Positions 624-53,188 of a stretch of DNA of 64,000 bases are shown here, in pieces. How positions within the stretch are numbered: the stretch's first letter is position 1; each line of letters starts with the position of its first letter. Position numbers and translations under genes: made by a program. The notes beneath the pieces were generated by a model. It did not search any database and was not told where the DNA came from. It worked only from the letters and a program-made list of their open reading frames with translations. This stretch comes from Theionarchaea archaeon (GTDB lineage: Archaea; Methanobacteriota_B; Thermococci; Methanofastidiosales; SZ-28-30), in the NCBI GenBank assembly GCA_018992685.1, contig JACVGT010000011.1:128001-192000 (forward strand), given 5' to 3'.

Positions 624-627
624 TCAT

Positions 628-1870: not shown

Positions 1871-2473
1871 CTAATCTACTAGGCTACCATACATCCATGA
1901 ATACTCGTTATCAGTCCTTTCAAACCCCACTTTTTCGGCTAATTTTATACTTGGCACATTCTCCTGACCGCAATGCCATCCAATAGAACCATGATTACTG
2001 GACAAACAGGAGTCCACGAGAGCTGCTGTTGCGATGGCGCCAAACCCTCTCTGTCGGTATTCTTTGACTGTTTGTACTGTGAACTCACACGAAGAACCAT
2101 ACCTGAATGAAAGACACCAGCTGACAGCCGCTTTATCTCTATAGACCAGGCAGTAACCTTCAAATCTCCTTCTTATGAATTCATCAACAGAAGCAATAAT
2201 GTCTTTGACTTCTCCAATAAGTGTATCAATGTTGTCTATATTGCTCTTCAACAAGTTCTCATCGACACGTCTTAAGGCAAATCCTGGAGGTATTCTGTCT
2301 TTCCAGTCGGTAACAACCTTCTGGCTAAATGCATAGTAGCAGCGAGGCATCCTCCTCGGAAACCGATCTATCAGTACCTCATTATTCAGTACCTTTTTTT
2401 CCCAGTGATGTGAGCATATTACGAAATACAGGGTTATGTTCCTCTTCAATGCATCGGGGGCAATTACTCTCGT
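1871..2473 (-). pseudogene. GNAT-family acetyltransferase, 5'-truncated
   Basis: Motif A (EYRQRGFGA) and motif B (NVPSIKLAEKVGF); frame runs to a junction near 2473 with no credible start. Confidence 0.7.
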
Positions 2474-3228
2474 GCAAGACCACCACCATCAGACTCTTCC
2501 TGGACCTGATCCGCCCCACCCGAGGGAGAGCTGAAATCTTTGGACTAGAAACGCAGAAAAACTCGCTCAAAATCAAAAGCCGCATTGGTTATATCCCTGG
2601 TGATCTGAGTCTGTACGATGCAATGTCTGGAAAAAGGTTCCTGCAATTTGTCTCTTCCTTGAGAACGAAAGAACCAGTGATGGCAGATGCGCTCTGTGAA
2701 CGGTTTCAGGTAACAGTGGACAGAAAAATTAAGGAGTACTCAAAAGGCATGAAACAGAAAATTGGTATTGTCCAAGCTTTCATGCATGATCCCGAATTGG
2801 TCATCATGGATGAGCCCACGCTGGGGTTAGACCCATTAATGCAGCGAGAGTTCTACACGTTCTTGAAAGAAGAACAGGAAAAAGGGAGAACCTTCTTCAT
2901 ATCTTCTCACATCTTAAGTGAGGTTGAAAAAGTGTGCGATCGTGTGGGAATCATAAGAGAAGGGAACATCGTGGCAATAGAAGATGTGGAAACTCTGAAA
3001 AAGAAGAGTGGGAGACTCATGGAAGTCACTTTCTCGAATGACGTCACAGAGGAAGACTTTAACATTCCTCAGATTTCAGTAGTATCCATAGAGAATCGTA
3101 CGGTGCAGTTCAGGGTTACTGGTAACATGGATGATGTTATCAAGCATTTGTCTCATTTCGAAATTAAGGATCTCGTTTCAAAAGGTGTATCGGTAGAGGA
3201 TATATTCATGCACTACTATGGTGATTGA
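2474..3228 (+). pseudogene. ABC-2 ATP-binding subunit truncated inside Walker A
   Basis: Homology starts at KTTTIR with the GxxGxG loop missing; YSKGMKQK, VIMDEPT and SSH intact; paralog of 3-623. Confidence 0.75.
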
Positions 3229-3229
3229 A

Positions 3230-4027
3230 ATGAAGATTTTTGTCAAAACGCTGCGAGAGAAATCAAGAGGAATTCTCATTTTGATGGTACTATTTTTGGG
3301 ATTCGCAATATACACTGCAGCTATGTTCCCTGCCATGGGTGAAGATATGCTGAAAAACCTTGATAGAGTACTTGATTTTCCAGCTTTCAAAGCCTTCGGA
3401 AAGTCTGTATCCACGCTTACCGCTATTGAGGGTCTCTTCGTGGTTGAGATATATCAATGGATGATTGAACTTCTCTTGGCAGGATATGTTGTCCTCTTTG
3501 CTGCGAGTTTTGTGTCTGGAGAAATCGAGAAGAAAACTATAGATGTATTGCTGGCAAACCCTATTTCACGAACCCGAATACTCCTAGAGAAGTACCTAGC
3601 ATTGGTGGTGATGATTGTCATGGTGAATGTGGCGCTGTTCATAGGAGTTGTTGCAGGGATAGCATACATTGGTGAAGAAACAGATGTAACCTGGCTGGCG
3701 TACACTCACATCGTGTTGATGCCGTTCCTTCTGGCTGTGGGTTCTTATTCCACTTTCTTATCGGTATTGTTCGATGATTTTCGGAAGGTGATGTCTGTGG
3801 GACTTGGGATCTTGTTCGGTACTTTCTTCTTGGATTCAATTTCCTTGATGGCAGAAAAATATGCTTTCGTATCCAAGGTGACGCTGTTTCACTACTTTGA
3901 TCCAGGAGAAACCCTCGTTTTGCACAAGATCGAGTGGAACCACGTAGTGGTGTTATGTGTGGTAGCTGTGGCACTGCTCTTGGCTGCTGTGCAGTGGTTC
4001 AACAAGAGAGACATCAACATTACATGA
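3230..4027 (+). CDS. ABC-2 type transporter permease
   Basis: EIEKKTIDVLLANPISR, multiple TM segments, ends FNKRDI; paralog of 628-1422. Confidence 0.92.
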   Translation: MKIFVKTLREKSRGILILMVLFLGFAIYTAAMFPAMGEDMLKNLDRVLDFPAFKAFGKSVSTLTAIEGLFVVEIYQWMIELLLAGYVVLFAASFVSGEIEKKTIDVLLANPISRTRILLEKYLALVVMIVMVNVALFIGVVAGIAYIGEETDVTWLAYTHIVLMPFLLAVGSYSTFLSVLFDDFRKVMSVGLGILFGTFFLDSISLMAEKYAFVSKVTLFHYFDPGETLVLHKIEWNHVVVLCVVAVALLLAAVQWFNKRDINIT

Positions 4028-4198
4028 CGATGCTGACTTCATGACGATATTGACTTTTTTCCTTTTTATGAAGCACTTGGATGAACTTGAGGCGGGATGG
4101 GATGAGAACTCCTTGGAGGTTATTGATGTAGATATTACACGCCAGATTGAATCAGCTTCTGGAATTCAACCTCATCCGGAGCTTAATAATTCGGAAAA

Positions 4199-4387
4199 TC
4201 ATTTCATCATAGTCTTTGCAAATGTTCTCGCTTGATCCAAGTCTTCATGACTTGGTTTTCCTCGATTAGTAAGGAAAAACTTCCCCTTGCAGAAGAATTT
4301 ACCTTTGATACAAGTTTCCTTGGTACTCAGAACATCTTCCATTCCTTTAACCTCAACTCCCTCTCCTGCCGCCGAGGTCCCAGACAA
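4199..4387 (-). pseudogene. Flavodoxin-like C-terminal remnant
   Basis: GKFFCKGKFFLTNRGKPSHEDLDQARTFAK resembles a flavodoxin C-terminus; N-terminal half absent. Confidence 0.55.
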
Positions 4388-4539
4388 GCAACAGTTCTTA
4401 ACGTGAAATCACTCTCTTCTGTTCCAATTACTGTTCTTGTGATTCTACAACCATGTTTTCCTAATGGGCCAATAGAGGAAGATGCTTGAAATGTGCGCAT
4501 CAAAAACCTAAAATCTGAAACTATTAATTGTTTAGGTCA

Positions 4540-9971: not shown

Positions 9972-10085
9972 ACATTTAGGCGAGACTTGATCAAGAAGAT
10001 GGAAAGTGGATGAGGTGAAAGGAAAGAAATTGAGAAGAAAACAAAAGATACTTAAGGTAGGAGAGCAAAACTGATGAGATGAAAG

Positions 10086-10850
10086 ATGGAATGGAGGAAA
10101 ATATCAATTCGGGATCACAAGGGTAAGATTGCTTTCATAGTTCTGGCAGCAGTCTTGCTTGTAGGATATTTCATAGTATCTAAGCCCCTCACGTATCATC
10201 AGTATCACAGAGATATTACACGAAAAGTCGACAATGACTTTGAGGAAACCCTATTGGAAATGTCAGAAACCCTTGACTACCCCTCAATACTTGGATTTGA
10301 AGATGAGTGGGGAGAAGGAGAATTGAACCCGAAAGAAGAAATATACACACAATATATCAGCAAAGACTTTATCCAGTACTACTGGGATAGACTTGGGCAC
10401 TTGAAAAGCAGGTTGAGCAGAGGATACTGCTACATGTATTATGGAGCAGATGTTCACTATGTAGATAACCTGAGCGCTGTCGTCTACGAAAAAGACTCCG
10501 AACATTCTGAGTACAAGTATGCAATAACTCTGGAACCTCTCATATCCACACTTTACCCTGATATTGATATTCCTGCTTATGGTATGGCATCTTCTGTGTC
10601 ACACAGCTGGGTTGCATTCTGGAATGGAAAGGATTTTGACATACTGGAAGGAATTGTGATCGGCGAAGATGATAACATTCTGCTAGAACGAGATTTCACT
10701 GACTGCATTCTCGTTGAGATGGTTCTTCATTATGGGAGACAAACGTTCGTGCTATCGGGTTCTGGATTCGTTCTGTTTCAGGATGTGGTATTCGACCAGA
10801 ATGGAGACATACTGATGATCAGTATATGGAGAATTGACTGGGAGAGTTGA
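10086..10850 (+). CDS. Hypothetical N-terminally anchored protein
   Basis: 254-aa ORF with one N-terminal TM. Confidence 0.75.
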   Translation: MEWRKISIRDHKGKIAFIVLAAVLLVGYFIVSKPLTYHQYHRDITRKVDNDFEETLLEMSETLDYPSILGFEDEWGEGELNPKEEIYTQYISKDFIQYYWDRLGHLKSRLSRGYCYMYYGADVHYVDNLSAVVYEKDSEHSEYKYAITLEPLISTLYPDIDIPAYGMASSVSHSWVAFWNGKDFDILEGIVIGEDDNILLERDFTDCILVEMVLHYGRQTFVLSGSGFVLFQDVVFDQNGDILMISIWRIDWES

Positions 10851-10933: not shown

Positions 10934-11659
10934 TCAATTCTTTTTTACTATGTGCAATCTTTCTAGCGAATAAACATAATCCCTCGTTTGTATTTTCCAA
11001 TCTGATAGATAATCCGCAATGAAAGACCATATCGGAGCCATGTATCTTAGTTCACCATGCAGTAAACAGGAAAAAGTGATGTGCTCATGGTTGGATCTTT
11101 TCTTTCTCAGTTGGGAAAGCGGTCTCTCTTTCTTAAATTCTGTTGAGGAATACCACTTTGATTCATCCACTATAGACAGATGTTCTGTGGTGTAGATTGG
11201 TTCAATGAGCTCCACACGATTATTATAGACGCCAGTTTCTTTAATGTACCGTTCCACATCTTCCAGATATTCAGGTTCTCCGCGTAAGATAAGCGCAAGA
11301 TAGAATAGCTCTCGAGAGAGCCCCCTGGAGTGAAGAAGTGCCAGTATATATAGGGAGAAAATGAGTGCAATGCCAGCAAGAAGAAGAGAATGGTCATGAA
11401 GATACATGCCACAGAAAAAGACCGATAAACTCCACGTTCCAAGAGCCATAATAATGTGTTTCATTCGTGTGTAATACTCAGGCATCGGTGCACTCTGTCC
11501 TGAAGTAAACAGGGTGAGAGAAGTGAGACCTGACATCCAGGCCATTAATCTCATCCCATAGCCGTGATAGGGAGAGGGATACAGAATACAGAAAATGAGT
11601 ACAAGTGCTACATTTGCGAGGTGGAGTATTATCATGGTACGGTTTCTCGTTGTTATCAC
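10934..11659 (-). CDS. Hypothetical membrane protein (4 TM plus soluble C-terminal domain)
   Basis: 241-aa ORF, hydrophobic N-terminal half. Confidence 0.65.
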   Translation of the reverse strand: MITTRNRTMIILHLANVALVLIFCILYPSPYHGYGMRLMAWMSGLTSLTLFTSGQSAPMPEYYTRMKHIIMALGTWSLSVFFCGMYLHDHSLLLAGIALIFSLYILALLHSRGLSRELFYLALILRGEPEYLEDVERYIKETGVYNNRVELIEPIYTTEHLSIVDESKWYSSTEFKKERPLSQLRKKRSNHEHITFSCLLHGELRYMAPIWSFIADYLSDWKIQTRDYVYSLERLHIVKKN

Positions 11660-11934
11660 CTGCGATTACATCAGTCCACCGTATGCACAGTCTCTTGAAG
11701 GTTGTAAGCCTATTGATATCCCCTGGATTATCGGAAGACTGAGGATCATCAGAGCTACTATGAAAGTCTCTGGTTATAAATCTGTGGCCTTAAAGGTCGT
11801 AGATCACCTCTTTTTGGCCTCTTGAAATACATTCAAAGAGCAGTCACATAAAAAAGCTTATACATCTTGAGTCTCCCAATCAAAGGTGGAGGATCTGATG
11901 GTTCGAGAGAGTGAAGAAGAGGAGTAATGATCAC

Positions 11935-12591
11935 ATGAGTAAGGATTTTCAGACGAGTTGGATGGAGATTTTTCTCCAGCGTGTTGAGGAGATTGCGGGA
12001 CAGGAGATCAAGGAGAAAGTGCAAGAAGGGAAAGAGAAGCTGCCCCTGCCCAACACACCAAAGGCAAGAAAGGAAATCTCAACATGGATTGCCCATGCCA
12101 TTGAGAAGCTCGATAATCTGGTCGACGAGAAAAAGAGAACCGACATACTGGTGGCCACCTGTCCCCATACATACCCAAAGAAGCGTATACGTGAGATGAG
12201 AGCCCTGTTCCAACAACTGGGCAGCATTGACAGGCTCATTGAAGAAATGCTAAAGGATACATCCTGGGGAGGCGTCCCCTATTATGATTATCCAGAAAGG
12301 GTCGAAACCGTCATCCGTATTACCAAGGTTCCTTTCAATCCTAAGGCCTACAAGATTGCTCAAACTGAACAGGAAAAAAGAAATTCCTACTGTCACTGCC
12401 CTGTGGTGCGGAAAGCCAATATGGAAATATCATCCACCATATGTTGCTGCTCGGGAGGATGGGATAAACAGCTATGGGAAGGTATTCTGGGCGAACCTCT
12501 TCGTGTAGAGCTTGCAAAGTCTATACTCAAAGGGGACGAATGCTGTGTCCATACTATCGAGATTCCTGCTCACTTTGTCGAGGGCCAGTAG
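11935..12591 (+). CDS. DUF6144-like Cys-rich (V4R-like) protein
   Basis: YCHCP, CCCSGG, LGEPLRVELAKSILKGDECC; paralog of 24617-25615. Confidence 0.75.
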   Translation: MSKDFQTSWMEIFLQRVEEIAGQEIKEKVQEGKEKLPLPNTPKARKEISTWIAHAIEKLDNLVDEKKRTDILVATCPHTYPKKRIREMRALFQQLGSIDRLIEEMLKDTSWGGVPYYDYPERVETVIRITKVPFNPKAYKIAQTEQEKRNSYCHCPVVRKANMEISSTICCCSGGWDKQLWEGILGEPLRVELAKSILKGDECCVHTIEIPAHFVEGQ

Positions 12592-12633
12592 CTGCCCGCA
12601 TTTGGGCACAAATCCCATGACATCCTGGCAATT

Positions 12634-13500
12634 TCATGCCTTGAATCGTCTCCTAAGAGCTCTATATCCTTCCTCAAAAGTGCAAGGATACCCCAATAAT
12701 GCATCTTTCATGATATAGAGTGGAATTCTCTTGAAGTACAATTCCGATCGCAGGAGCATCTCTTCGTCCTTTGTACCTTTGTATGACTCGAAGACACGGG
12801 TTGCAAATGGTAAGCCATATTCTCGTAACCCAGTGAAATCGATAGCTGGATCACCAAGAGAGCGATCGCTAAAGTCAATGATGTTTATTCGCCTTTCTTG
12901 AGCGTCCCATAAGATGTGTTCGCTTCCCAAATCATTATGAGCGAGTACATGGGAATAATCGTGGCTAAGGGCAATTTCTAGTTCTTCAAAGTATTCTTCG
13001 ATGGAATGAATATATTTCTCAGGTAGACGAGGATAGAGAAGAACTCGTGTGTCTCGGACGAGCTCTTCGTACATTCTTTTCTGGTCTTCTGTTCTAACGT
13101 GACATTTCTTGAGGATGGATCTTGGTGTGGCGTGGAGAGCTGTAATGAATCCAGCGAGTTGGTTGGCAGCGCATTCCTTTTCAGAATCAGATAGGTGCTG
13201 AAAGCGAGAAGTCGTGAGTTCCAGGCCTTTCACCAGTGGATACCCGGCAAATGATTCGTCTCTGGAAATGTAAATGTAGTCAGGAATACCTACATCGACT
13301 TTTCTTTTCAGATAATGAAGGAGTTGTATCTCATTCATGAGCTCTCTCCTGTAAGAAGAATCTCGTGGAGCACGAAACACAATCATCTCATCGAGGATGA
13401 TGACTACATGATCCCACCCCTGAGTCAGGTAGCGATAGGTCTTCCATTCGAGTTCTGGAAACTCCTCTCTGATTCTCTGTAAGAAGCATTCCTCTTTCAC
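12634..13500 (-). CDS. Aminoglycoside phosphotransferase (APH)-family kinase
   Basis: GWDH, VFRAP, HNDLGSEHIL, IIDFSD, GDPAIDF; GTG start inferred from an upstream TATA. Confidence 0.85.
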   Translation of the reverse strand: MKEECFLQRIREEFPELEWKTYRYLTQGWDHVVIILDEMIVFRAPRDSSYRRELMNEIQLLHYLKRKVDVGIPDYIYISRDESFAGYPLVKGLELTTSRFQHLSDSEKECAANQLAGFITALHATPRSILKKCHVRTEDQKRMYEELVRDTRVLLYPRLPEKYIHSIEEYFEELEIALSHDYSHVLAHNDLGSEHILWDAQERRINIIDFSDRSLGDPAIDFTGLREYGLPFATRVFESYKGTKDEEMLLRSELYFKRIPLYIMKDALLGYPCTFEEGYRALRRRFKA

Positions 13501-13711
13501 AAAGTCATTTTGACTACTCTCTATAAAGTTCTTCTTATAGGCATCATTCCGAACGCATCCTGGCATGGCTGTGTTCTCTGGGGAATATCCTGGAAGTTAA
13601 TATTGAGGAGGTAGCTCTGGGCAAGTATAATGATGTATGCCCTCAATGCAAAAAGCTACCCTGTGAATGCTCCCTGCAGTGAGCATGTTTGGCAGCTCGG
13701 GTGCTAGCCCG

Positions 13712-14190
13712 TGATTTGTCCAATGAATCATCCCTCCCCTCAGTAATTCAATGACCTTTGTGTATACCTTGAGATTCTGGACAACAGCTAGGAGCATGAC
13801 ATGGGTCTTTCGGGTGTGGCGAAGACAGCGTTGTGTCCTGTTGCTGTGTCCAGTCTCCGTCCCGTCAAAGACACCTTCAATCATTCCACGAAATTGCTTA
13901 TAGAGTGTTTCACAGAAGTCTTTCCGTGCTTTCTGTCGAATGAGAGAAGCACCGCAGGATTCCCTCTGTTTGATCATGGGGATGAACCTCTCTTGTATTC
14001 AAGTCTGAGGTATTCCTCACTGTCATACCCTCTGTCACTGAGAACAATTCCATGAAAGATTTTGCGCGTCAGGAAATCATAGTAGCGTGAATTGTGGGCA
14101 GTACCATGAGAAACAGCGGCTGTAACAAGTGCAGTGACTCCATGCCCTGGAGTAAGTCCTTGTTCTTTCCAGTAGGCAAATCGAAGCTAC
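13712..14190 (-). mobile_element. IS4/IS5-type DDE transposase remnant, frameshifted and 5'-truncated
   Basis: Reverse-strand translation gives LSDRGYDSEEY, then after a frameshift LYKQFRGMIEGVF and HVMLLAVVQNL. Confidence 0.75.
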
Positions 14191-14197
14191 TCAACTC

Positions 14198-14593
14198 CTA
14201 CATTATGGGATAGTAAAGATAACCAGGTTCCATTGAACCTATGTCATGAGGTCTTGGAAGAATCATTGCTAGAGGTCGGTCATGAATACTGGGGTTATCA
14301 GGAATTCTTTCAATGTCACATTCTACAACGAAGATCAGTGACGCATCAATTGCGAGCATGTCTGTAATCCCCGTATTCAAGACTTTTCTCGCCTGCTCTA
14401 TAGCTTCATCTGTTGAATACTTGAGGAATCTATCTAGTCCCTCTACAATAGTGAGTTTTTGGTGAGAATTGGTCTCAATCAATCTCAATAGATTAATAAT
14501 GCTTGTCTTGTGTATTAGAGTGAAATCTTCATCATGAATATCTCCGAATTTCTGACCCTCAATAACGTGGAATCCTCGTTTCCGTAGGTCCAC
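14198..14593 (-). CDS. Small alpha/beta protein, probable degenerate P-loop (BrxB/BrxF-like) subunit of the BREX-related operon
   Basis: GTG start abuts the MTase stop, with RBS ggaggtg; LTIVEGLD resembles a Walker B strand; no Walker A. Confidence 0.65.
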   Translation of the reverse strand: MDLRKRGFHVIEGQKFGDIHDEDFTLIHKTSIINLLRLIETNSHQKLTIVEGLDRFLKYSTDEAIEQARKVLNTGITDMLAIDASLIFVVECDIERIPDNPSIHDRPLAMILPRPHDIGSMEPGYLYYPIM

Positions 14594-17206
14594 TTATTTC
14601 ACCTCCAAGCCGAAGTCCTCCAAGGTCTTGCTAGGTGAGGTTTTGAAGGTGTGATATATCCTTTTCCATGTTGTATTATTCGTCCGCTCCGCCATAAATC
14701 CCATATACTGCCCCAACCTCTCCTTGTCGAGACCTGTTCGGAGTATCATTTCGAGTGTACTACCAAAGTTTCCATTGTCTTCTCTATCTATCCATAATAG
14801 ATGAGCTGCGTCAATGTAGGTTAAAGGAATTCTCCTGGACATCTTTTTGTCGATGAAGTCTTTTCTTTCATTCGGCGGTGTAATAGTCATTATATCCTTT
14901 TTTTTGTCTCTCACCACCAGTTTCTCCTCTTCAAACGTATTTGTTTCTATGCCTCCGTGTCTAGTGAGCTTGTTAATTGTATCATTCGAGATTTTCACTT
15001 TCTTCGCAAAGATGCTAGCATATATCTTTGATATCCGATCAACATCTGGCACTCTCTCCAATACACGCCTCAATAGTGAATCAAATACAATGTCTCCCAT
15101 GATTTCCATCGAAACTTCTGAGACATCGAATACCTGACTATCTCTCGTAATGTTCCCATAGTTTCGGCTGTAAACCTGCAAGGCCTTTCCCATTGCAATT
15201 ATGAAGGCATCTTCAACTTCAAGGTCGGGATGCTTGTCGACAATAGTGCTTATGCTAATATCAACATGGCTTCTTAGCTCGCTTTCAAATATTACCCAAG
15301 GTACTTGCTGGTGCTTTCTTTCGAGAAGCTTACGACAGACTATAATTGAATTATAGTTTATTCCAAAGGCTCTTACTCCACTTGGAGTCTCACCATGCGT
15401 TGGATAAACTGCAGTAACATAAAACCCTGCTTTGAGTATTGCACTTAAAATCGCAGACCACGCTTCAGTTTTCTTGTGCTGGAATACAAAAACCAATATA
15501 CCATCTTCTCTAAGAACTCGGTGGGATTCGCTAAGCACTCTTGTCATTCCTTCAATGTAGAACCTTTCATTTTTACCCTGAGTAGCATTGACCAGTATTT
15601 CTCTGTCTTTTCTTGTGAGCGGAGATTTGAAAACATCTTTGTCTTCCAACCCTAACCTGAGCCAGACATAGAAGAAATCTGACAGTTCAGAGTACATTAT
15701 GTTGGCATAGTACGGAGGATCAGTTATTACTGCATCAACACTTTTTTCTGGGATGAAATCAAGATCCTCTGCAGTATCACATCTTAGTAGTACATCTCTA
15801 TCCCCAAGGAGATCTTCAAAGTAACTGGTGTTGTTACCATTGATTTCTTCATCTTGTATGATTAATTTACTTCTGATCTTTTTTCTTTGTCCATGTTTTC
15901 CTTTTTTCAACTTGAATCTTATCTCATATGGACTTTGTTGATATTCAAGTGCCCTGAGCGCTTTTTCAAAATATTTCCGGAATGTTCCTCTCCCGTATTT
16001 CGTTCCCCACACATTTCCTTCAATCGGAAATACTGGTGGCCAGAAATGGTGACCACCAAAGAGTGGTTCAATCTCAAGTCTTATCATGTTGTATACTGTG
16101 AACATATTATTTGAATTCAGACTATCTGAGAAGAGGATTAGAAGAAATTCCTTGATATTCTCATCTTCGGTTTTCAATATTTCTTCGAGGACTAGGCTAA
16201 GGCATACAAGCTGTCTCTTGTTAAACATTTGATACCAATAGCGGTAATTAAAGTTCCTCATTTGATTTGTGTTGAAACCAATAGGAATTTCCTGAAGAGG
16301 TATTAATTTCCCAAACAGTTGATCTCTCTTCTGGATAAATTCGCTATTTGCCCTCATGTACAGTTCAATGTCCTTTTCATCAGGCTTCTTGTAATCTCTT
16401 CGCTTCCATCCGCTTTCTTCGCACTCCTGACAGTAGTATTCTATTGCGTACATCTCATGTTCTGGTGGGTTTTTGGTGTCTTTCACTGCAGAGAGAATAT
16501 CTCCTTGGTATTTGCAGTGTTGGCACTTATATATCTTTCCAGTAGCGAATCCATTGTCAGGACTGAATCTGCTGGCACAGGCAGAACAAAGGATTACTTC
16601 AAGACTCTTTTCTGCGGAAAAGATTTCACCACATCTGGGGCACTGATAAACCCAGTGATCCCTGAGTTTGGCAACTACAAAAGACCTATACAATGGTACA
16701 TCTTTGCTGCAGTTTTCACACTTCACCTTCTTTGCCCAAAAAACATACATTACATCTGCATTGTGACCTTTGTTGCATGAAGTCCTATAATAAGATAGTA
16801 TCTGATTCTTGGTTGCTTCTTCGATTCTCTTAAGCTCTTTTCTTATTCTTGTTTTTTCCACAGGTTTAAGTTCCATTCTTGTGATATACCATGCCAGGGG
16901 ATTTATGTCAATGCCTATCATTCTGCAACCGAGTCTATGCCCTTCTATGATTGTTGTACCACCGCCCATAAAAGGATCAAGAATAATAGGGGGATTTCCT
17001 TTCTTGTTTCTTAATTTACTTCTTTTGTAATAGTGGATCATGGGATCTTCTTCAAGAAATGTGCCAAGTATGAGTGCCCGAAAAGTACTACCAACCCTGC
17101 GGGCAAACCATTTATGAATATGATATATTGGTTTTCTCGCATTGCTTTCACTCCAGGCGATTTCATCTATCTGTTCGATTGGAAAGTCTTTTTCGATATA
17201 CGGCAC
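14594..17206 (-). CDS. DUF1156-type Zn-ribbon adenine DNA methyltransferase (PglX-I-like)
   Basis: N-terminal IHKWFARR, motif I DPFMGGGT, motif IV TDPPYY, CxxC pairs CENC/CPRC/CSAC/CQHC/CQEC. Confidence 0.92.
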   Translation of the reverse strand: MPYIEKDFPIEQIDEIAWSESNARKPIYHIHKWFARRVGSTFRALILGTFLEEDPMIHYYKRSKLRNKKGNPPIILDPFMGGGTTIIEGHRLGCRMIGIDINPLAWYITRMELKPVEKTRIRKELKRIEEATKNQILSYYRTSCNKGHNADVMYVFWAKKVKCENCSKDVPLYRSFVVAKLRDHWVYQCPRCGEIFSAEKSLEVILCSACASRFSPDNGFATGKIYKCQHCKYQGDILSAVKDTKNPPEHEMYAIEYYCQECEESGWKRRDYKKPDEKDIELYMRANSEFIQKRDQLFGKLIPLQEIPIGFNTNQMRNFNYRYWYQMFNKRQLVCLSLVLEEILKTEDENIKEFLLILFSDSLNSNNMFTVYNMIRLEIEPLFGGHHFWPPVFPIEGNVWGTKYGRGTFRKYFEKALRALEYQQSPYEIRFKLKKGKHGQRKKIRSKLIIQDEEINGNNTSYFEDLLGDRDVLLRCDTAEDLDFIPEKSVDAVITDPPYYANIMYSELSDFFYVWLRLGLEDKDVFKSPLTRKDREILVNATQGKNERFYIEGMTRVLSESHRVLREDGILVFVFQHKKTEAWSAILSAILKAGFYVTAVYPTHGETPSGVRAFGINYNSIIVCRKLLERKHQQVPWVIFESELRSHVDISISTIVDKHPDLEVEDAFIIAMGKALQVYSRNYGNITRDSQVFDVSEVSMEIMGDIVFDSLLRRVLERVPDVDRISKIYASIFAKKVKISNDTINKLTRHGGIETNTFEEEKLVVRDKKKDIMTITPPNERKDFIDKKMSRRIPLTYIDAAHLLWIDREDNGNFGSTLEMILRTGLDKERLGQYMGFMAERTNNTTWKRIYHTFKTSPSKTLEDFGLEVK

Positions 17207-17207
17207 C

Positions 17208-18122
17208 CTATCTACCTCGATTCTGTTTTATTTCGATAAATGGGATGATCGTTTCAAGAAAAGATAATCCACCATGTCGCACATGGACGTATTTTCCTCT
17301 TTTTATAGTATTGTACCTTCCCACAAGTATCCAGTAGTTGTCAAACTGCCTGCAGTATCTTTTCAGAGATTCTGGAACGCTAGACGAATACCTCTTGTTA
17401 CTTGGGAAATCCGATAATCCCTTCCAGGAGAAGGTATCCACAAAATATCCATGATCTGAGGTGACAATAATCCTATCATAGAATGATAGGTGTTCTAACA
17501 ACTCAAAAAGAATGCTCTTTGTTTTACTAAGCACCTTTTTGAGATCTTGGGTTTCGAATGCACTCGTGAACTGAGAAAACATAAAGTCGGGAAACGTCGA
17601 CCAGATCAGCAACTTATTCTTGTCCACGGGAATATCACCAATGGCATCCTCTCTTTCCAAGTGGACGTAATAATACTCGTCTCCAGTTCTAATTTGTGAA
17701 GGTGACGAGGTGTTGAAGTATTGACTTGTGAAGAATTCCGTTTCGCTCGGGATTGCCGAGAGTGTGTATCCATATCTTATCTCTTTGTGTCTTTTCAAAT
17801 CTCTTGATAAGGGTATAGCCTCTCTTAGGCTCATTCCGTCCATAATTATAAGACAAAAGCAGTTTTCCAATGCTATCATTGGTATTGCATTGTTCTTGCC
17901 TACGTTCTGTAAGATAGAGTCAAATACCTCTGGAAAGATCCTGAAAACTTGTTCTTCAAATTTGGATGTTAACTTCTCCCCCAGAGGGTAGTAATTGTCT
18001 TCTTCTGACAACGCGTAGTTCCAGATTTCATTGAGAGATACGAATATCTCATCTAATGGATCTCCCTGGATAAGTTTATTAATATCAGCGATTCTAACCG
18101 AATCCTTGTCTATCTCTATCAT
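17208..18122 (-). CDS. pglZ: Short PglZ-family alkaline-phosphatase-fold protein
   Basis: IIMDGMS, PSETE, IIVTSDHGY, HGGLSFLETIIP. Confidence 0.82.
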   Translation of the reverse strand: MIEIDKDSVRIADINKLIQGDPLDEIFVSLNEIWNYALSEEDNYYPLGEKLTSKFEEQVFRIFPEVFDSILQNVGKNNAIPMIALENCFCLIIMDGMSLREAIPLSRDLKRHKEIRYGYTLSAIPSETEFFTSQYFNTSSPSQIRTGDEYYYVHLEREDAIGDIPVDKNKLLIWSTFPDFMFSQFTSAFETQDLKKVLSKTKSILFELLEHLSFYDRIIVTSDHGYFVDTFSWKGLSDFPSNKRYSSSVPESLKRYCRQFDNYWILVGRYNTIKRGKYVHVRHGGLSFLETIIPFIEIKQNRGR

Positions 18123-21118
18123 ATCTCCTTTCTCCTTGCGAGAAACCTAATGTTCAAGTCACCAGCTTTCTTAAGAAGATTCATGAGTTCCCTTGCAGTT
18201 AAGTCCTTTGCAACTTCTATCCTAACATCTTCCATGATGTCGGCATCTTCCACTTCTTTTTCAATTCTCTTCAATATCTCGCTGATCGTCCCTTCTTCTC
18301 TAAAGATGATTCTTTTCTTTGGTAGCTCTCGGGATGGACCCTTCCCCTTTGGTAATGAGAAAATACTCTTATCTTTGTCAAATACGAGCCTATTTTCATC
18401 AATTAAGGAGGCGATTGCATAATTAATGATTTTCTTTTCTGTTGGAAATATCTTGGATACTTCTTCCACAAGGGGTTCCCTTCTGAATTCACCTTCCTTT
18501 TCCACTTCAATGAATACTTTTTTCTTCACTTCTTCAGTTAATTTTTCCTCCGGAAGTTGAATTACAACAGAATCTTTTCCTCTCAAAATGTGCACTTGGG
18601 TCCCTATTTCTAAGTTGTCTCCTGCCATTAAGACAAGATCATCCGTTATGCCAGAATTCCCGTGAGTTTCTTTAAGAATTATGCTTAAATCTGTCACCTT
18701 GGTGGCAATTCTTTCATTAACGATCTTGAGAATCAGTGGCTCCAAGATTTCAGCAGCCTCTTCTACTACAACTAAGGCGCTAAGTTTTACATTCGAAGGT
18801 CTACTGATAATCCTATTCTCCTCTAAAGCAAATATTCCATCCTCTGTGTTTATTGATGAAATGTAGACTGTTTCGAGAATTTTATCATCAATGAAAGGAT
18901 AGCTCTCCGCGAATTTCCTAAAGGGTAATCTCTTCTTGTCTCTGACCATTACTGCTATATCACTTGAAGTGGGAGGTATGGCAATTTCTAGTGGTTTCTT
19001 GACAACGTCTTCATTGCCAATTGTCTGAGGCGATATAGGTTTTCTATAAAGTATTCTGCCTTGTTTCGTCTTGATAGCTACCTGGCCAATTTTCTCTGTT
19101 TCAACCAGTAATGATAATAAATCCTCATCTCTTAAGAGCATTGGTGCTCCTTCAAGCCTGTACAACCTCTCCTTTAGATCTCGTACTGATATTTCATCGT
19201 TTTCCTCTAAGATCATGTTCAAGAAGTATTCTAAGAGGTCTTTTGAGGCATAATTCCTAATAACTCGGTCAACATCTCTAAGGCTTGTTATGGTCCTTTC
19301 ATCTGGAGCGGGTTTGTCTCTTGGATTCTTCCTGAACCATCTGAATCCCCTCCACCCAGCATTATCTATCTGTCTTGTTATATGTTTCATGTATTCTTCA
19401 TGGAATTCCTTGAAGGGCTTTTCTTGCCCTTCCGTATCGGCCAATTCATCACTAGCTATTATTCGCTTAGCTAGTTTTATTGTTTCATCGCTTTTCAGGC
19501 TATAACTCGGATACAGAAGATAAAGGGTGTTTCTGTTCGTGAATTCTGGCGGATATAGATATGAAACATCTATGGGTTTTTCCAATAGTGTTAGTATTTT
19601 CAGTCTTTTATCGTTACTAATCTCAGATGGATCATGAATGAGTCTGTAACCTTTGATCTCGGATGAAGCTTTTCTTTCTACCAGTTTTTCTATGATCTGT
19701 AGAGCATCACCTGAAGACACCAACTCAGATTTTCTTTCGATTTTTACTGCAACTGGAAGCTCAGTCGTTATGACATATCTTATTGTTCCATCTTCCTCAA
19801 CTCTCTTCAATCTCGTCCATTTCTCCAAGAATGATATAGTGTCATCAATATCTTGAACCTTATACTTCGGACCGCAACCAAAGACAATGTCCTTGACGTC
19901 GGCGCCTTTTTTTGCTTCAGTGGTGCCTAGCATAGAAGTGATCAATATTGCTCTAGCAAGTTCAAATGAGATTATACCATCCTTGACTTCCTTTGTATTC
20001 TGCACAAATCCTATGTCTTCAAAATATGCATCAACAACCTTAGGATTTGCTGAATGCAAATAATCGCGTAAGATATCATCATCAAGGTCTGAGGAGATTA
20101 TCAGGTCTACTTCATCGATTTTTCTCATCACAACTTTTGCTAGCATTACAAGCATTTGCCTTACTCTAAGATGACTCAATGTTCTAAGGAACGAAGGATG
20201 GAATGGATATGCTTTTTTGAGCTCGTCCTTCAAGTATGAGTTTTCATCTAGCCCCTTCTTGCGCAATCTTTCCCCGATTGTCCTCAGATAATCTGGAATA
20301 ATAATGTCTATCTTGTTTTGATCAATGCTCTTGAACAATCTGAACCTGACAATGCCAAATATGTCATCCGATCTTTGCATGATTATCGAAGAACCACCAC
20401 GTGGGCGAGCCACAATATCCCTCAGTACTTTGACGTCAGAAGATATACCTAAGAAGGTTGTAACAAGCTTAAACTGACATCGTGAATCTTCAGAGGATTC
20501 AGAAAGACCCTGCAAGAACCCTCGAACTCTTGCTTTCTCTTGGTTGTTCTTTGCATCATACCAGTTGTCAATTTCATCAATTAGCATTAGGACGTTTTTC
20601 TCCCCTATTGCTTTCTTTATTTGATTAGATCTAGGCCAATCACCTTCTCCAAAGCCAATGTCTTTTCCCAGTGCTTGAAAAAGGGGGGACCATAGGTCTC
20701 TATAGCTAACACTCTGAAGAGGTATTGGGATAATTGCGGTTCCCCTGATTCTAGGAAAGTCTATACCCCATTCTTGAAACCATCTATCAGCATGATCTGT
20801 ATGTCTGAAGATATGATACAATGTTAGAAGAACATGAGATTTCCCTGAACCCAAATAACCATCTAAAGGAAAGACACCGGGACCGGTGCTTTCAATTTTC
20901 TCCTTTATGTCCCTCAATATCTCTCTTATGACACTGGTAGGGTATGTATGAGAAAAGAACCATTCCGGGTCACCCTCTAGTCCTCCCAGCTGAGCTGGGG
21001 CTTTTGGTCCCTCAGGAGGCCTGAAATTGTCCCATGATATTACGGGATTGATATTTCTGATAAGTTGGGATTCACTTTTGGCGTTGACTATTTCTTTACG
21101 AAGTTTGACAGCAAGCAT
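18119..21118 (-). CDS. DUF499-family (BrxC/PglY-related) ATPase
   Basis: DPEWFFSHTYPT, Walker A GYLGSGKSH followed by LYH, Walker B LMLIDEID, AYPFHP; ATGA overlap with pglZ. Confidence 0.88.
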   Translation of the reverse strand: MLAVKLRKEIVNAKSESQLIRNINPVISWDNFRPPEGPKAPAQLGGLEGDPEWFFSHTYPTSVIREILRDIKEKIESTGPGVFPLDGYLGSGKSHVLLTLYHIFRHTDHADRWFQEWGIDFPRIRGTAIIPIPLQSVSYRDLWSPLFQALGKDIGFGEGDWPRSNQIKKAIGEKNVLMLIDEIDNWYDAKNNQEKARVRGFLQGLSESSEDSRCQFKLVTTFLGISSDVKVLRDIVARPRGGSSIIMQRSDDIFGIVRFRLFKSIDQNKIDIIIPDYLRTIGERLRKKGLDENSYLKDELKKAYPFHPSFLRTLSHLRVRQMLVMLAKVVMRKIDEVDLIISSDLDDDILRDYLHSANPKVVDAYFEDIGFVQNTKEVKDGIISFELARAILITSMLGTTEAKKGADVKDIVFGCGPKYKVQDIDDTISFLEKWTRLKRVEEDGTIRYVITTELPVAVKIERKSELVSSGDALQIIEKLVERKASSEIKGYRLIHDPSEISNDKRLKILTLLEKPIDVSYLYPPEFTNRNTLYLLYPSYSLKSDETIKLAKRIIASDELADTEGQEKPFKEFHEEYMKHITRQIDNAGWRGFRWFRKNPRDKPAPDERTITSLRDVDRVIRNYASKDLLEYFLNMILEENDEISVRDLKERLYRLEGAPMLLRDEDLLSLLVETEKIGQVAIKTKQGRILYRKPISPQTIGNEDVVKKPLEIAIPPTSSDIAVMVRDKKRLPFRKFAESYPFIDDKILETVYISSINTEDGIFALEENRIISRPSNVKLSALVVVEEAAEILEPLILKIVNERIATKVTDLSIILKETHGNSGITDDLVLMAGDNLEIGTQVHILRGKDSVVIQLPEEKLTEEVKKKVFIEVEKEGEFRREPLVEEVSKIFPTEKKIINYAIASLIDENRLVFDKDKSIFSLPKGKGPSRELPKKRIIFREEGTISEILKRIEKEVEDADIMEDVRIEVAKDLTARELMNLLKKAGDLNIRFLARRKEI

Positions 21119-21567
21119 TCGATTTCTCCTCCCTCACCTGTTCATATCTATCATCCTGTGTAAATGGGAAAAATGTGAAATGACTCCTGTTCTCAAAGAC
21201 CGTTTCCGTTGAGCCCATTCTTACCCATTTCAATTCGTCTGAATGAAGGATTGAAGTATTCGTCCCTCTGAGCATTTCATCACTTCGCGCATGTATGAAT
21301 ATTTAATGTTGTTTTGGTATAAAAAGCTTGTGTCTCAGTGATGTCAGATTATTCGAATTTTCTAGAAGGTTCCAGGCATTTCTTGCATTTCTCACGGCCT
21401 AGTGATAAGGTAGCTTGGATGAGATTAAAAGGAAGAGCAAAACTACCAAGATATCTGACCATAAAATCTCTTCTTAAGTCCGGCCTCTTTCTGATTCAAA
21501 CATGATTGTCACTACGTGGGAACCCATCAAGGTCCGGATTCTTGAATATCGAAATTGCATCCTGCTC

Positions 21568-21927
21568 TCAGATCCACTCCAGTTCTTCAACAGTCAGGCT
21601 GCTCTTGACGTCGCCTGTATGCTTCGTTTCCTTGGGCTCTAACAGCATCATGTGAACTTCTTCGGGGGCAACTGGCCTGTGTTCGACCCCTCTCGGGACA
21701 ACAAATATTTCTCCCTCATTCAGGGTGATGTCTGTGTCTCTCAGTTCAATTGTCAGCTGACCTCGTATGACAAGGAACAGCTCGTCTTCATTCTGGTGGC
21801 TGTGCCACACCATTTCTCCTTTCGCTTCTGCTATTTTTACATACTGTCCGTTCAGTTCTGCAATAATCTTGGGAGTCCAGAATTCATGTATGAGACTCAG
21901 CTTATCCTCCAATGTTATCTTGTCCAT
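21568..21927 (-). CDS. Cupin-domain protein
   Basis: WHSHQNEDELF...VPRGVEHRP; RBS ggaggt before the ATG at 21927. Confidence 0.92.
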   Translation of the reverse strand: MDKITLEDKLSLIHEFWTPKIIAELNGQYVKIAEAKGEMVWHSHQNEDELFLVIRGQLTIELRDTDITLNEGEIFVVPRGVEHRPVAPEEVHMMLLEPKETKHTGDVKSSLTVEELEWI

Positions 21928-22029
21928 TTTTTTTACCTCCGATAGATTCATGGTTGTCTCTTTCCACCGTGGACGGAAGGAGAGTATTTCCATAATCAGG
22001 GTTCCCATACTCTTCCAGGGAATCTCACT

Positions 22030-23052
22030 TTACGAACGAGACTTCACTCCAAGCCCTATTACCAGGATAGCACTGACTAGAATCAGACCCAGCACAACGT
22101 ACCTCTGAAATGGAGAATCTGGGACAGCTTCAGGTTCGACCGTGCCCCCTGGGCCAGAGCCAGGCTGACTCTCAAACGCTACCAGCTCGGACAGGTAAAC
22201 ACCCTCACCGATATTCATTGTAATGTGTTCACGGAATCCCCTGACGGTTTCTACAGTCTCATTCAGTAATGAAATTTTCCATATCTTATCAAAGTCACCT
22301 TCCAGAGTGAGGTAGACGTCATTATTTCCAGGATCAAACAGCATGGAACAGCGCGTTGAAGCATTCGTTCCATGACTTACAACACTTTTCAGTAGAGAAA
22401 ATCCATCTTCCAGATCGAAAGCTCCTGCATGGTCCCTTAGATATCTGCACGCAGTCTTGTATCTGTCACTGCCTGCTCCGTAGACAGTTTCATATGGCTC
22501 GCCTGCAAACTCAGCACAAGGGAAATTCGTCATAACAATAAAATCACCTTCAATTCTGGTACTGAGGTTATCCCCCTGGCCAACCTCCACAATCATGGCA
22601 TCACCATATGCATCAGCATATAGGCTGTGAAGTGACACCATCCCCGTTACCATCTCATGATCATGCAGTATACTAGCGACATCCTGACAGCTGCTTAGCA
22701 TCATTGCTGCTTCAAGCAACTCTGTCATCTCCATTTCGTCGGAATCTTCAGATATTTTTCCAGGAACCCCGGGGAACACCATCTGGACGTTACAGAACAG
22801 CCCCTGTGAGTTCATGACAGCAATAGGCACAAAAAGATCTCTTTCCCACTCAAGTTTCATACAGAAAACCTTCAGGTCTCCCATTGTTGTGACACAGAAC
22901 ATCAAGTCTTTTGAGGGATCATAATCAAAGTTCATTCCGTAGAACGTTCTGTCAGCGTATACAGCAAAACTCGTGCATGCAAGGAGAGAACTGGAGCTGA
23001 GGACAAATAATGCAGTTACAGATAACCACACGCTTGCAGCTTTCTTTTTCAT
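22030..23052 (-). CDS. Secreted, C-terminally anchored Ntn hydrolase (choloylglycine hydrolase/penicillin V acylase-like)
   Basis: Signal peptide then CTSF, GMNFDY, MNSQGL, MTNF; C-terminal TM. Confidence 0.82.
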   Translation of the reverse strand: MKKKAASVWLSVTALFVLSSSSLLACTSFAVYADRTFYGMNFDYDPSKDLMFCVTTMGDLKVFCMKLEWERDLFVPIAVMNSQGLFCNVQMVFPGVPGKISEDSDEMEMTELLEAAMMLSSCQDVASILHDHEMVTGMVSLHSLYADAYGDAMIVEVGQGDNLSTRIEGDFIVMTNFPCAEFAGEPYETVYGAGSDRYKTACRYLRDHAGAFDLEDGFSLLKSVVSHGTNASTRCSMLFDPGNNDVYLTLEGDFDKIWKISLLNETVETVRGFREHITMNIGEGVYLSELVAFESQPGSGPGGTVEPEAVPDSPFQRYVVLGLILVSAILVIGLGVKSRS

Positions 23053-50431: not shown

Positions 50432-50664
50432 CTTCCCACCCCTGACAGAGCTCTGTAACCCTTCTCAAGTGATGACTGCCCTTTCCCCTGGCAGCATACT
50501 TCAGCACGTTTTGAGATGCGTGGAATCACCACAACCACCGCAGGTTCTTACGTGGTAGAAGTATTTACCCTTTTGGTATGTACTATTTTGTGTAAACCCA
50601 GGATTTACCTTTGGGTTTCCAAGGCATCAAAAAGCTTAAGTAGTCTCTCTTTTCTTCTGCACCA

Positions 50665-53160: not shown

Positions 53161-53188
53161 TAAAAGATCAAGGCGGGAGGTGATACAC

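Follow-up and report, generated by a model that had tools for sequence, protein, structure and literature searches.

The locus at positions 14,198 to 21,118 of the window is probably (probability of approximately 0.6) a variant without a helicase among the Type-3 BREX-related (BR) defense systems, carried on an 8.0-kb accessory island of low GC content. The window is the whole stretch of DNA that was analyzed, 64,000 nucleotides from a Theionarchaea archaeon (GCA_018992685.1, contig JACVGT010000011.1, positions 128,001 to 192,000). The locus is peculiar only in lacking a DNA motor gene; otherwise, it is an intact four-gene module of a published family. As judged by sequence comparison, all four genes are homologous to a module whose order is conserved across archaea and bacteria.

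The preliminary description had considered the locus to be the best candidate for a poorly described system in the window. This does not hold, since the gene set matches that of the Type-3 BR systems, which in the account of Rakesh & Krishnan (NAR 2026;54(3):gkag035, PMC12839542) are defined in 569 taxa, including 134 archaea, and consist of an ATPase, a methyltransferase (MTase), a stand-alone active PglZ and an inactive STAND protein. The preliminary description was nevertheless right in assigning the locus as BREX-related and in its core of a DUF499 ATPase together with a minimal PglZ and an m6A MTase of the DUF1156 type.

Table 1. Features of the island, with positions given in the window.
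Feature	Positions	Strand	Remarks
g1: DUF499-type ORC/Cdc6-like AAA+ ATPase (BrxC/MtsA analogue)	18119..21118	-	999 aa, ATG start
g2: stand-alone PglZ (alkaline-phosphatase-superfamily phosphodiesterase/nuclease), proposed effector	17208..18122	-	304 aa, ATG start
g3: DUF1156 N6-adenine DNA methyltransferase	14594..17206	-	870 aa, GTG start
g4: probable degenerate P-loop (iSTAND-like) protein, always adjoining the MTase	14198..14593	-	131 aa, GTG start
Decayed IS-like repeat within the island	13564..14197	.	further partial copies and transposase-like features
Non-coding leader, 445 nt, 5' of g1, within the island	21119..21563	-	sequence inspection
Whole island, 8,000 nt, presence/absence polymorphism	13564..21563	.	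empty-allele contig

The features of the island are collected in Table 1. The four genes are co-oriented and tightly coupled, as had been described: from ORF coordinates and sequence, g1 and g2 overlap by 4 nt, a 1-nt gap separates g2 from g3, and the TAA stop codon of g3 directly abuts the GTG of g4. A GGAGG was found by inspection approximately 9 nt 5' of the g1 ATG. All four ORFs are full length with no frameshifts and no premature stops. Since homologues of all four are found elsewhere in conserved order, g1 to g4 are real genes and not chance ORFs. As g4 begins immediately behind the g3 stop codon and in the same frame, a read-through or recoded fusion was considered and was rejected because the stop is TAA. 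In a related locus (L088), the g3 and g4 homologues share 4 nt and are read in different frames; together with the TAA stop, this indicates that g3 and g4 are separate genes. The locus is also the lowest-GC stretch of the window (0.3945 vs. 0.4606 for the rest), consistent with the AT-richness that had been noted by eye. No other sliding window of this length (229 compared) reaches a GC content that low; the minimum begins at 14001. A search of positions 12500–22500 against Rfam gave no matches at E ≤ 0.1.

The motifs that had been reported as intact (Walker A/B, SDHG/HGG, and MTase motifs I and IV) are all present. In g1, a motif scan identified the Walker A sequence GYLGSGKS at 87 and the Walker B sequence LMLIDE at 177, and residues G87, G90, G92, K93, D181 and E182 are invariant in an alignment of 24 sequences. 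The protein matches Pfam DUF499 with 44.5 bits (cut-off 23) over residues 161–321 only, PADLOC HmaC with E = 2.7e-11, and NCBIfam DUF499_antiphage with 44.8 bits (cut-off 1200). A search with the ATPase profile identified no solved structures related by sequence at a meaningful E-value.

The MTase g3 matches Pfam N6_N4_Mtase (55.2 bits) and DUF1156 (25.1 bits, cut-off 24). Its best PADLOC matches are PglXI (8.6e-34) and HmaB (1.3e-31), and NCBIfam DUF1156_antiphage scores 142 bits (cut-off 1000). Motif I (FMGGG) is found at 79 and motif IV (DPPY) at 496, with CxxC motifs at 163, 189, 207, 228 and 259. A large insert of approximately residues 110–470 lies between the two motifs and contains two Cys4 zinc ribbons (CxxC 163/189 and 207/228). 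Solved structures related to the MTase by sequence were limited to motif-sized matches.

Sequence profiles recognize g2 only below their thresholds, at 18.3 bits for Pfam PglZ (cut-off 25) and 18.3 bits for NCBIfam BREX_PglZ_3, a model 642 positions long with a cut-off of 250. The AlphaFold model of g2 (pLDDT = 93.7) displays the PglZ fold. In Foldseek searches, the model matched the PglZ domains of PorX with E = 5e-12 and the Acinetobacter BREX PglZ (9zn5_B) with E = 7.5e-10. The motifs MDG (94), PSET (125), SDHG (222) and HGG (283) were located by scanning, and 35 sequences show no variation at D95, S98, R100, E101, T128, S222-D223-H224-G225 and H283-G284-G285. Among 1.84 billion sequences, the g2 family comprises 259 representatives at E ≤ 1e-10, and the best 150 of the 259 are all 362 aa or shorter.

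The smallest protein, g4, had been described as a degenerate P-loop protein, and the present data are in keeping with this description. It contains no GK[ST] and no Walker A motif, and IFVVE was located at 87 by the motif scan. The best structural matches of the predicted model (pLDDT = 90) are all AAA+/RecA-type P-loop cores, with the weak likeness of VIA Z-scores of 5.2–5.6, while Foldseek returned no match at E ≤ 0.001. BrxB is absent from the Foldseek and VIA matches listed for g4, which does not imply a difference in fold. No family was matched in Pfam, PADLOC or NCBIfam at E ≤ 0.01, and no solved structure was related to the g4 profile by sequence at a meaningful E-value. Ten homologues were identified by phmmer in the clade of the window. 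A profile of nine sequences aligned with a profile of 25 small proteins that follow the MTase in other loci (hhalign probability 96.2%, E = 2.3e-9, 110 columns), and g4 is homologous to these small proteins. In the four loci where the operon is split (L092, L093, L095 and L096), the g4 homologue stays with the MTase and not with PglZ.

A survey of gene order had been proposed, and the order ATPase, PglZ, MTase, small protein was found to recur among 99 related loci. In 61 of the 80 genome loci (L002–L081), the ATPase immediately precedes PglZ on the same strand, and in 58 of these 80 the MTase is downstream on the same strand. Across all 99 loci, a full-length MTase is followed within 80 nt by a co-oriented gene of 95–175 aa in 37 of 50 cases. 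The motor gene varies by clade, being an SNF2 helicase in the bacterial clade and, in one small group, a ResIII helicase of 526 aa. In the clade of the window (16 rows, support 98), a tightly coupled HerA-like ATPase of 392–394 aa with intact Walker A/B motifs follows the g4 homologue. The preliminary description had asked whether homologs always carry additional helicase or nuclease genes. The outcome is mixed. Most relatives carry a motor gene (SNF2 in 32, HerA-like in 10 and ResIII in 2 of the 52 judgeable loci), but the haloarchaeal loci consist of the same four genes with no conserved fifth gene in 8/8 cases, counting those whose flanks exceed 3 kb on each side. They form one clade (support 100) with varied neighbors, representing eight species from five families. 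Thus, the four-gene form is more than a relic.

The island is a presence/absence polymorphism within one archaeal population, being absent from some of its cells. This is derived from an empty allele in the contigs of one public run (X3), where positions 13564–21563, exactly 8,000 bases, are replaced by 75 letters. The empty-allele contig (1,691 nt, depth 12.7) joins 13563 to 21564 and spans 1,296 nt of the left side and 320 nt of the right side. In the same run, the contigs bearing the island have a depth of approximately 10. A second run (X6) presents the same joint more weakly, as its shorter side spans just 29 letters. The island is bordered by the start codon of an APH-like gene and by a point 4 nt past the stop of a cupin gene. 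The 8-nt sequence GCATCCTG is present at both borders; it was found post hoc and may be due to chance. When three close genomes were searched for the empty site, a C45-like flank gene gave one weak match (E = 4e-6).

Within the island, four ORFs and the IS remnant are the only contents, and there is no motor gene. The absence of a helicase, BrxA and BrxL from the locus, as initially described, was borne out. PADLOC found neither BrxA nor BrxH among the 12 proteins encoded at 10–24.6 kb, and BrxA, BrxHII, HmaA and a helicase-nuclease were found neither in the island (Pfam, PADLOC) nor in the 91%-complete assembly. Searches of this assembly for an SNF2 helicase with the L059 helicase, PADLOC HmaA and Pfam SNF2-rel_dom as queries gave no match; the family controls for the latter two matched in 14/14 genomes. 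Two candidates for a HerA-like motor were considered and rejected. A remnant 3' of g4 yielded nothing usable (tblastn E = 0.8–2 at 14171–13989, hmmsearch E = 0.67). A motor acting in trans was sought in the assembly, where the sole good HerA-like match is an 846-aa HerA+wHTH protein on another contig (C14). It is 40% identical and lies among unrelated genes, and nothing ties it to the locus.

A rather unlikely alternative is that the locus is a decaying relic, in which an IS-mediated event removed the HerA-like motor from a five-gene ancestor. The remaining genes may methylate without restricting, or may be in the process of being lost. The HerA-like gene after the g4 homologue is complete in six loci of the clade (L088, L089, L092, L093, L095 and L096) and is cut by a contig end in L086, while in the sister lineage (L082/84/85) it is shortened to 112 aa, which could mean that the sub-clade is decaying. 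The window has an IS-like repeat exactly at the position where its nearest relatives carry the HerA-like ATPase gene, so a motor component may have been lost. An IS remnant beside the locus had been noted earlier and is substantiated here by five further partial copies of positions 13560–14197 in the same assembly (72–89% identity). A 126-aa ORF at 13597–13977 on the minus strand also resembles fragments of DDE transposases in language-model features (score 0.95), and this is a lead only. The co-existing empty allele, which has similar depth in run X3, might suggest that loss is ongoing; however, presence/absence polymorphism is normal for active defense islands. Decay is also opposed by the integrity of the four genes: no ORF is interrupted or shortened, translational coupling is kept, and every family-invariant residue that was checked is retained. 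Furthermore, the haloarchaea keep the four-gene form in the eight loci with enough flank.

It is improbable that the module serves a purpose other than defense, either in ATP-dependent methylation for epigenetic or regulatory ends or as a selfish methylase-based addiction element. PglZ would then be a phosphatase or signaling enzyme, as in the PorX two-component regulator. The PorX proteins are indeed the closest solved folds to g2, but g2 is a PglZ without a receiver domain. Neither a nuclease of a classical family nor a motor is encoded at the locus, and a search of the literature found no experimental test of any Type-3 BR system. Against a role in regulation, the module in the relatives is interleaved with defense and abortive-infection genes (PIN, Fic, Schlafen/AlbA_2, OLD+UvrD and a YhcG nuclease) and surrounded by integrases, resolvases and GmrSD, McrB-like and Dnd-like genes. 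Its distribution is patchy, and a search of 60 relatives of the host did not recover it. The last rival, an already named system with its full complement of genes (canonical BREX type 3, Hma/Type-1 BR or MANTIS/Type-2 BR), draws on the PglXI, HmaB, HmaC and DUF499 matches, but is refuted at the level tested by BREX_PglZ_3, DUF499_antiphage and DUF1156_antiphage scores far below their cut-offs, by the missing BrxA, BrxHII, HmaA and helicase-nuclease, by the lack of a Pfam family for g4 and by a different gene order; the PADLOC run that had been called for likewise gave only sub-threshold or partial matches, as did the NCBIfam models.

As a helicase-less Type-3 BR system, the locus may be considered in terms of a marking step and a restricting step. 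In the first, g3 would mark the DNA of the host with N6-methyladenine, probably by modifying one strand of a short asymmetric motif that is read by the zinc-ribbon insert. It would act only once the AAA+ ATPase g1 loads it onto DNA, and g4, a probable small inactive P-loop protein, may be a co-factor or adaptor. In the second, the ATPase-centered complex would also recognize unmodified incoming DNA and direct the stand-alone PglZ against it. By analogy, g2 would be a metal-dependent phosphodiesterase or nuclease. Self-marking by m6A and a PglZ effector were proposed for Type-3 BR systems by the authors who defined them, with PglZ described as a nuclease in their account of type I BREX (PMC12839542), and the preliminary description had arrived at the same reading. 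MANTIS (Type-2 BR) is the only biochemical model so far. In the account of Shaw et al. (10.64898/2026.09.23.753747), the DUF499 ATPase MtsA and MtsB, the small co-regulator, are each needed by the DUF1156-type MTase MtsC, which they load, and MtsC hemimethylates adenine in asymmetric 6-bp sites.

A broader proposal, offered tentatively, is that the autonomous unit consists of ATPase, PglZ, MTase and iSTAND protein, with an exchangeable motor (SNF2, ResIII, HerA-like or none), such that PglZ could restrict in these archaea without a dedicated translocase. If true, the sensing and cutting step of BREX-like immunity would be separate from DNA translocation. Mechanistically, BREX-like systems are still poorly understood, above all in the action of PglZ on invaders and in the part played by the helicases. 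The locus by itself adds little to the 2026 survey. The minimal four-gene form, with orthologues in cultured haloarchaea such as Haloarcula japonica DSM 6131 (locus L039) and on a Haladaptatus plasmid (locus L017), and with motor swaps specific to clades, provides a small and tractable set of constructs, and a natural island-plus/island-minus pair is present in one population. Such constructs could ask if ATPase, MTase and iSTAND protein are enough for methylation, and if PglZ alone is enough for restriction.

Among known systems, MANTIS/Gao_RL (Type-2 BR) and Hma (Type-1 BR) share the DUF499 ATPase, the DUF1156-type MTase and a small accessory protein with the locus. Their effector is a helicase-nuclease (MtsD/HmaA), whereas the window has a PglZ and no helicase, and HmaA was not found in the assembly. 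The small protein of Type-2 BR is of the DUF3780 type, a different family from g4, which has no Pfam family at the threshold given above. BREX type 3 is composed of BrxF, BrxC, PglXI/BrxXI, BrxHII, PglZ and BrxA, and resembles the locus in the broad clade of its ATPase, in a nested-TRD MTase, in the use of PglZ as effector and in having BrxF as an inactive P-loop partner (PMC12839542). It differs in that the window has neither BrxA nor BrxHII, has DUF1156 at the amino terminus of its MTase, and encodes a 304-aa PglZ that lacks the N- and C-terminal domains found in BREX PglZ. The gene order is also unlike that of BREX type 3, as had been pointed out.

Type I BREX offers a parallel for a complex of an inactive AAA+-like protein, PglZ and a BrxC-like ATPase. 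As described by Kaiser et al. (NAR 2026, PMC13326643), BrxB, an inactive AAA+ protein, attaches to the AAA+ domain of BrxC and retains PglZ by binding its N-terminal domain (residues 1–98). In contrast, g4 is genetically tied to the MTase and not to PglZ in the clade of the window. The BREX-Related Capture (BRC) systems resemble the nearest relatives of the window in combining PglZ with two ATPases, one HerA/FtsK and one BrxC-like, but in the same survey (PMC12839542) they have DUF6079, DUF4007, an active STAND protein, GNAT and TGT and no MTase. The clade of the window instead carries DUF499 together with a DUF1156 MTase and the small protein g4, and a Pfam search of the island identified none of the BRC families DUF6079, DUF4007, HerA/FtsK, TGT and GNAT. 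A TGT with PUA and C1/C2 domains is encoded at 50665–52368, 29 kb away.

The closest counterpart is Type-3 BR, as presented in PMC12839542. In that account, a BrxHII-like SNF2 helicase without a nuclease is one of three core components, and none is present in the window or the assembly. The HerA-like ATPase of the nearest relatives receives no mention for Type-3 BR in its main text. The ATPase, the MTase and the PglZ correspond. The window has a DUF499-type AAA+ ATPase with intact Walker A/B motifs, and an MTase with an N-terminal DUF1156 and a nested target-recognition insert bearing zinc ribbons; a subset of Type-3 BR MTases is noted to have two 4C zinc fingers, as is the case here. The stand-alone PglZ has a complete active site (D95, T128, D223, H224 and H283). 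Type-3 BR also has a small inactive STAND/P-loop protein with eroded Walker motifs, for which g4, without a Walker A motif and weakly resembling AAA+/RecA cores, is the candidate. In keeping with the present host, these systems are common in archaea.

The four minus-strand genes of the locus (g1–g4), which encode an ATPase, a PglZ protein, a methyltransferase (MTase) and a small P-loop protein, are tightly coupled. From the coordinates and the sequence, g1 and g2 overlap by 4 nt, a 1-nt gap separates g2 from g3, and the TAA of g3 is directly followed by the GTG of g4. The GC content of the locus is 0.3945 compared to 0.4606 in the remaining window, and is the lowest among 229 sliding windows of equal length, upholding the AT-richness that had been judged by eye. 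Downstream of g4 lies a 634-nt stretch with five more partial copies within the assembly; its appearance as a DDE-transposase remnant is a lead only. The preliminary description of four coupled genes with intact motifs, low GC and an adjacent IS remnant was thereby confirmed in full. The window is archaeal, with genes for aRF1, for a PUA-bearing TGT of the archaeosine type and for an S-layer protein.

Coordinates of the locus and of the other features discussed
Feature	Sequence	Coordinates	Strand	Size
g1, g2, g3, g4	window	14198–21118	-	999, 304, 870, 131 aa
Island	window	13564–21563		8,000 nt
Border repeat	window	13555–13562; 21557–21564		8 nt
Mrr_cat protein	window	39894–40736	-	280 aa
Heliorhodopsin	window	40872–41660		
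KwaB-like protein and preceding ORF	window	48552–50431	-	441, 184 aa
Second DUF1156 MTase	L015 (Saliphagus)	14310–16958	+	
Four-gene module	L011 (Candidatus Methanodesulfokora washburnensis)	50–4432		
PglZ fragment	L100 (523-kb metagenome contig)	around 10001–10369		
HerA/DUF87 protein	contig C14 of the source assembly G000 (L110:8641–11181)	50640–53180	-	846 aa

The g1 protein is a divergent DUF499 AAA+ ATPase. It scores 44.5 bits against Pfam DUF499 (cut-off 23), matches PADLOC HmaC at 2.7e-11 and preserves both Walker A and Walker B, while its NCBIfam DUF499_antiphage score falls far short of the cut-off. The g2 protein scores 18.3 bits against Pfam PglZ, under the cut-off of 25. Its structural model is confident (pLDDT = 93.7) and resembles PorX PglZ domains (E = 5e-12) and the Acinetobacter BREX PglZ (7.5e-10). 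The expected catalytic set of D95, T128, SDHG (222–225) and HGG (283–285) is present and invariant among 35 aligned relatives. The third protein, g3, is a DUF1156 N6-adenine methyltransferase. It has motif I at 79, followed by an insert of ~400 residues with two CxxC...CxxC pairs and then by DPPY at 496.

None of 60 relatives of the host yielded the mini-PglZ. A large protein collection contained 28 other clusters (29 including its own) of ~300 aa or shorter fragments, and 259 representatives were identified at E ≤ 1e-10 among 1.84 billion, the best 150 all being ≤362 aa. A scan of species-representative genomes gave 110 relatives, from which 80 loci were kept, and a metagenome scan added 19. 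With crude gene calling (longest non-overlapping ORFs) and the window's proteins as queries, the ATPase was detected in 67/80 and the MTase in 65/80 genome loci. In 61/80 the gene immediately upstream of PglZ, in the same orientation, encodes the ATPase; in 58/80 the MTase gene is found downstream in that orientation, and in 31 it is the next gene after PglZ. Across all 99 loci, a co-oriented gene of 95–175 aa begins ≤80 nt after a full-length MTase in 37 of 50 cases. The arrangement of ATPase, PglZ, MTase and small gene recurs. Some loci present additional features. A second full-length DUF1156 MTase that directly follows the first MTase and small-gene pair in Saliphagus could be a specificity duplicate. 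The four-gene module of Candidatus Methanodesulfokora washburnensis adjoins a phosphorothioation-type system of DndB-like, PAPS-reductase (DndC-like) and SMC-like genes. A different arrangement occurs on a metagenome contig (L100), where a PglZ fragment faces a 1,158-aa SNF2 helicase, a 932-aa MTase and a 950-aa gene on the other strand.

No family in the Pfam, PADLOC or NCBIfam libraries matches g4. Among the 19 metagenome loci phmmer found 10 matches to it, and among the 80 genome loci none. When g4 and eight close homologues were combined into a profile, this aligned with a profile of 25 small post-MTase proteins over 110 columns (96.2% probability, E = 2.3e-9); therefore, g4 is the same conserved component. 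The g4 model (pLDDT = 90, pTM = 0.86) is a domain of alternating strands and helices for which Foldseek returned no match at E ≤ 0.001. VIA-align reached a Z of at most 5.2 against 48,161 representatives and of 5.6 on a second look, too low to call a fold. The matches listed were all AAA+ or RecA-type P-loop cores, including the inactive Rad51 paralogues Psy3-Csm2 and Shu1:Shu2. With Walker A absent and an IFVVE strand present, the earlier term "degenerate P-loop" is a fair description. Judging from its position and size, g4 is likely the iSTAND of PMC12839542.

The 99 loci were sorted by the genes accompanying the core: SNF2 (phmmer E < 1e-40 to the helicase of L059, itself a PADLOC HmaA match at 5e-109), 32 loci; HerA (hmmsearch E ≤ 1e-10 with a profile of six 392–394-aa proteins), 10; Res526 (E < 1e-100 to the helicase of L009), 2; none (the three large genes present, the core flanked by >3.0 kb before and >3.5 kb after it, and no SNF2, Res526 or HerA match), 8; and unknown (all other loci), 47. 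From 86 PglZ rows of 250–400 aa, a quick maximum-likelihood tree was built with SH-aLRT as its sole support measure; it splits into two clades with support of 96 each. One comprises 49 rows, all bacterial (SNF2 28, unknown 21). The other comprises 37 rows with zero SNF2, and contains a haloarchaeal group (support 100; 8/8 of class none), a group with a 526-aa ResIII helicase, and the pair L002 and L011. The window also belongs here, within a clade of 16 rows (support 98).

Within the window's clade, a HerA/DUF87 ATPase gene is located 3–27 nt after the g4 homologue. It is complete in six loci (L088, L089, L092, L093, L095 and L096), where the GKRGSGKS and LLIDE-type motifs are intact; the L086 copy is cut by the contig end, and in the near-identical L082, L084 and L085 the gene is shortened to 112 aa. 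In the metagenome loci L092, L093, L095 and L096 the genes form two divergent units, MTase-g4-HerA and ATPase-PglZ, instead of one operon, an arrangement that links g4 to the MTase and not to PglZ. An additional gene of ~140 aa with no family lies between the two units in L095 and L096. Elsewhere in the source assembly, in an unrelated neighborhood, a HerA/DUF87 protein with a C-terminal TrmB-like winged helix shares 40% identity over 376 residues with the HerA-like ATPase of the clade.

No HerA remnant was found in the window, and the 91%-complete assembly gave no match to the SNF2 helicase, PADLOC HmaA or Pfam SNF2-rel_dom, with family controls for the latter two positive in 14/14 genomes. 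The absence of a helicase claimed in the preliminary description is supported accordingly. Its refuting condition, that homologs always carry extra helicase/nuclease genes and the locus is a truncated relic, had a mixed outcome: most of the 52 loci that could be judged have a motor gene (SNF2, HerA or Res526), but the 8/8 haloarchaeal loci with enough flank are of class none. Haloarchaeal neighbors vary (integrases, resolvases, transposases, GmrSD, an EVE-McrB-like protein and AddAB-like genes), with no conserved fifth gene; one locus has an upstream ResIII helicase and one a 446-aa RapA_C fragment.

Contigs of four public runs were compared with window positions 11500–22500. A single 1,691-nt contig of run X3 (depth 12.7) skips exactly 8,000 nt, matching 12268–13563 with 2 differences and 21564–21883 with 1, with 75 other letters between; contigs of this run that bear the island have a depth of ~10. 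The same joint recurs in run X6, where one of its sides is covered by just 29 letters. The island borders coincide with the start codon of an APH-like gene and with a point 4 nt beyond the stop of a cupin gene, and thus the IS remnant, the four genes and a 445-nt leader form one accessory block replacing a 75-nt spacer. An 8-nt repeat, GCATCCTG, noticed at both borders after these were known, may be due to chance. No RNA runs are listed for the stretch.

Elsewhere in the window, the KwaB-like protein (Pfam KwaB 2e-24) carries PKD domains and its gene is preceded by a 184-aa ORF without a family in a low-GC kilobase (0.412); the two may constitute a Kiwa-like defence pair. A protein with an ATP-cone, an Mrr_cat restriction-endonuclease domain and an AF1548-like C-terminal domain is encoded beside a heliorhodopsin gene.

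Taken together, the locus is probably (0.6) a working or recently working helicase-less module of the type published as Type-3 BREX-related (Type-3 BR). In such a module, g3 would place m6A on self DNA, g1 and g4 would load and control g3, and g2 would target unmarked DNA. The main alternative, distinctly less probable, is a relic in which the HerA-like gene was lost and the remaining module is restriction-dead. A role other than defence is unlikely given the genes that accompany the module; in relatives, the PglZ–MTase interval hosts PIN, Fic, Schlafen/AlbA_2, DUF3800, OLD+UvrD and YhcG nucleases.

Full membership in BREX type 3, Hma or MANTIS was excluded at the level tested. Two studies supply the closest biochemistry. 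In MANTIS (Type-2 BR), hemimethylation of asymmetric sites by the MTase needs both the DUF499 ATPase and a small co-regulator (10.64898/2026.09.23.753747). In type I BREX, BrxB, an inactive AAA+ protein, docks on BrxC and binds PglZ through the N-terminal 98 residues of PglZ (PMC13326643). Type-3 BR systems were described from 569 taxa, 134 of them archaeal, with a DUF499 ATPase, a DUF1156 N6-MTase (two 4C zinc fingers in a subset), a BrxHII-like SNF2 helicase without a nuclease, a stand-alone active PglZ that is near-universal and, in 82% of taxa, an inactive STAND protein (Rakesh & Krishnan, NAR 2026, PMC12839542). Their embedded auxiliary nucleases are of the same kinds as those in the window's relatives. 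The SNF2 helicase, a defining core gene, was found neither at the window locus nor in the 91%-complete assembly; the locus is therefore a variant of Type-3 BR rather than a plain member. The main text of that study makes no mention of helicase-less or HerA-bearing loci, and a literature search found no experimental test of Type-3 BR. With this kind of system and its proposed mechanism in print, the claim of a poorly described system has been overtaken; the idea of m6A self-marking with PglZ as effector coincides with the published proposal of PglZ as primary effector, and is not new. What is added here is the swap of motor by clade, the recurrence of the four-gene form in cultured haloarchaea, and a natural plus/minus pair.
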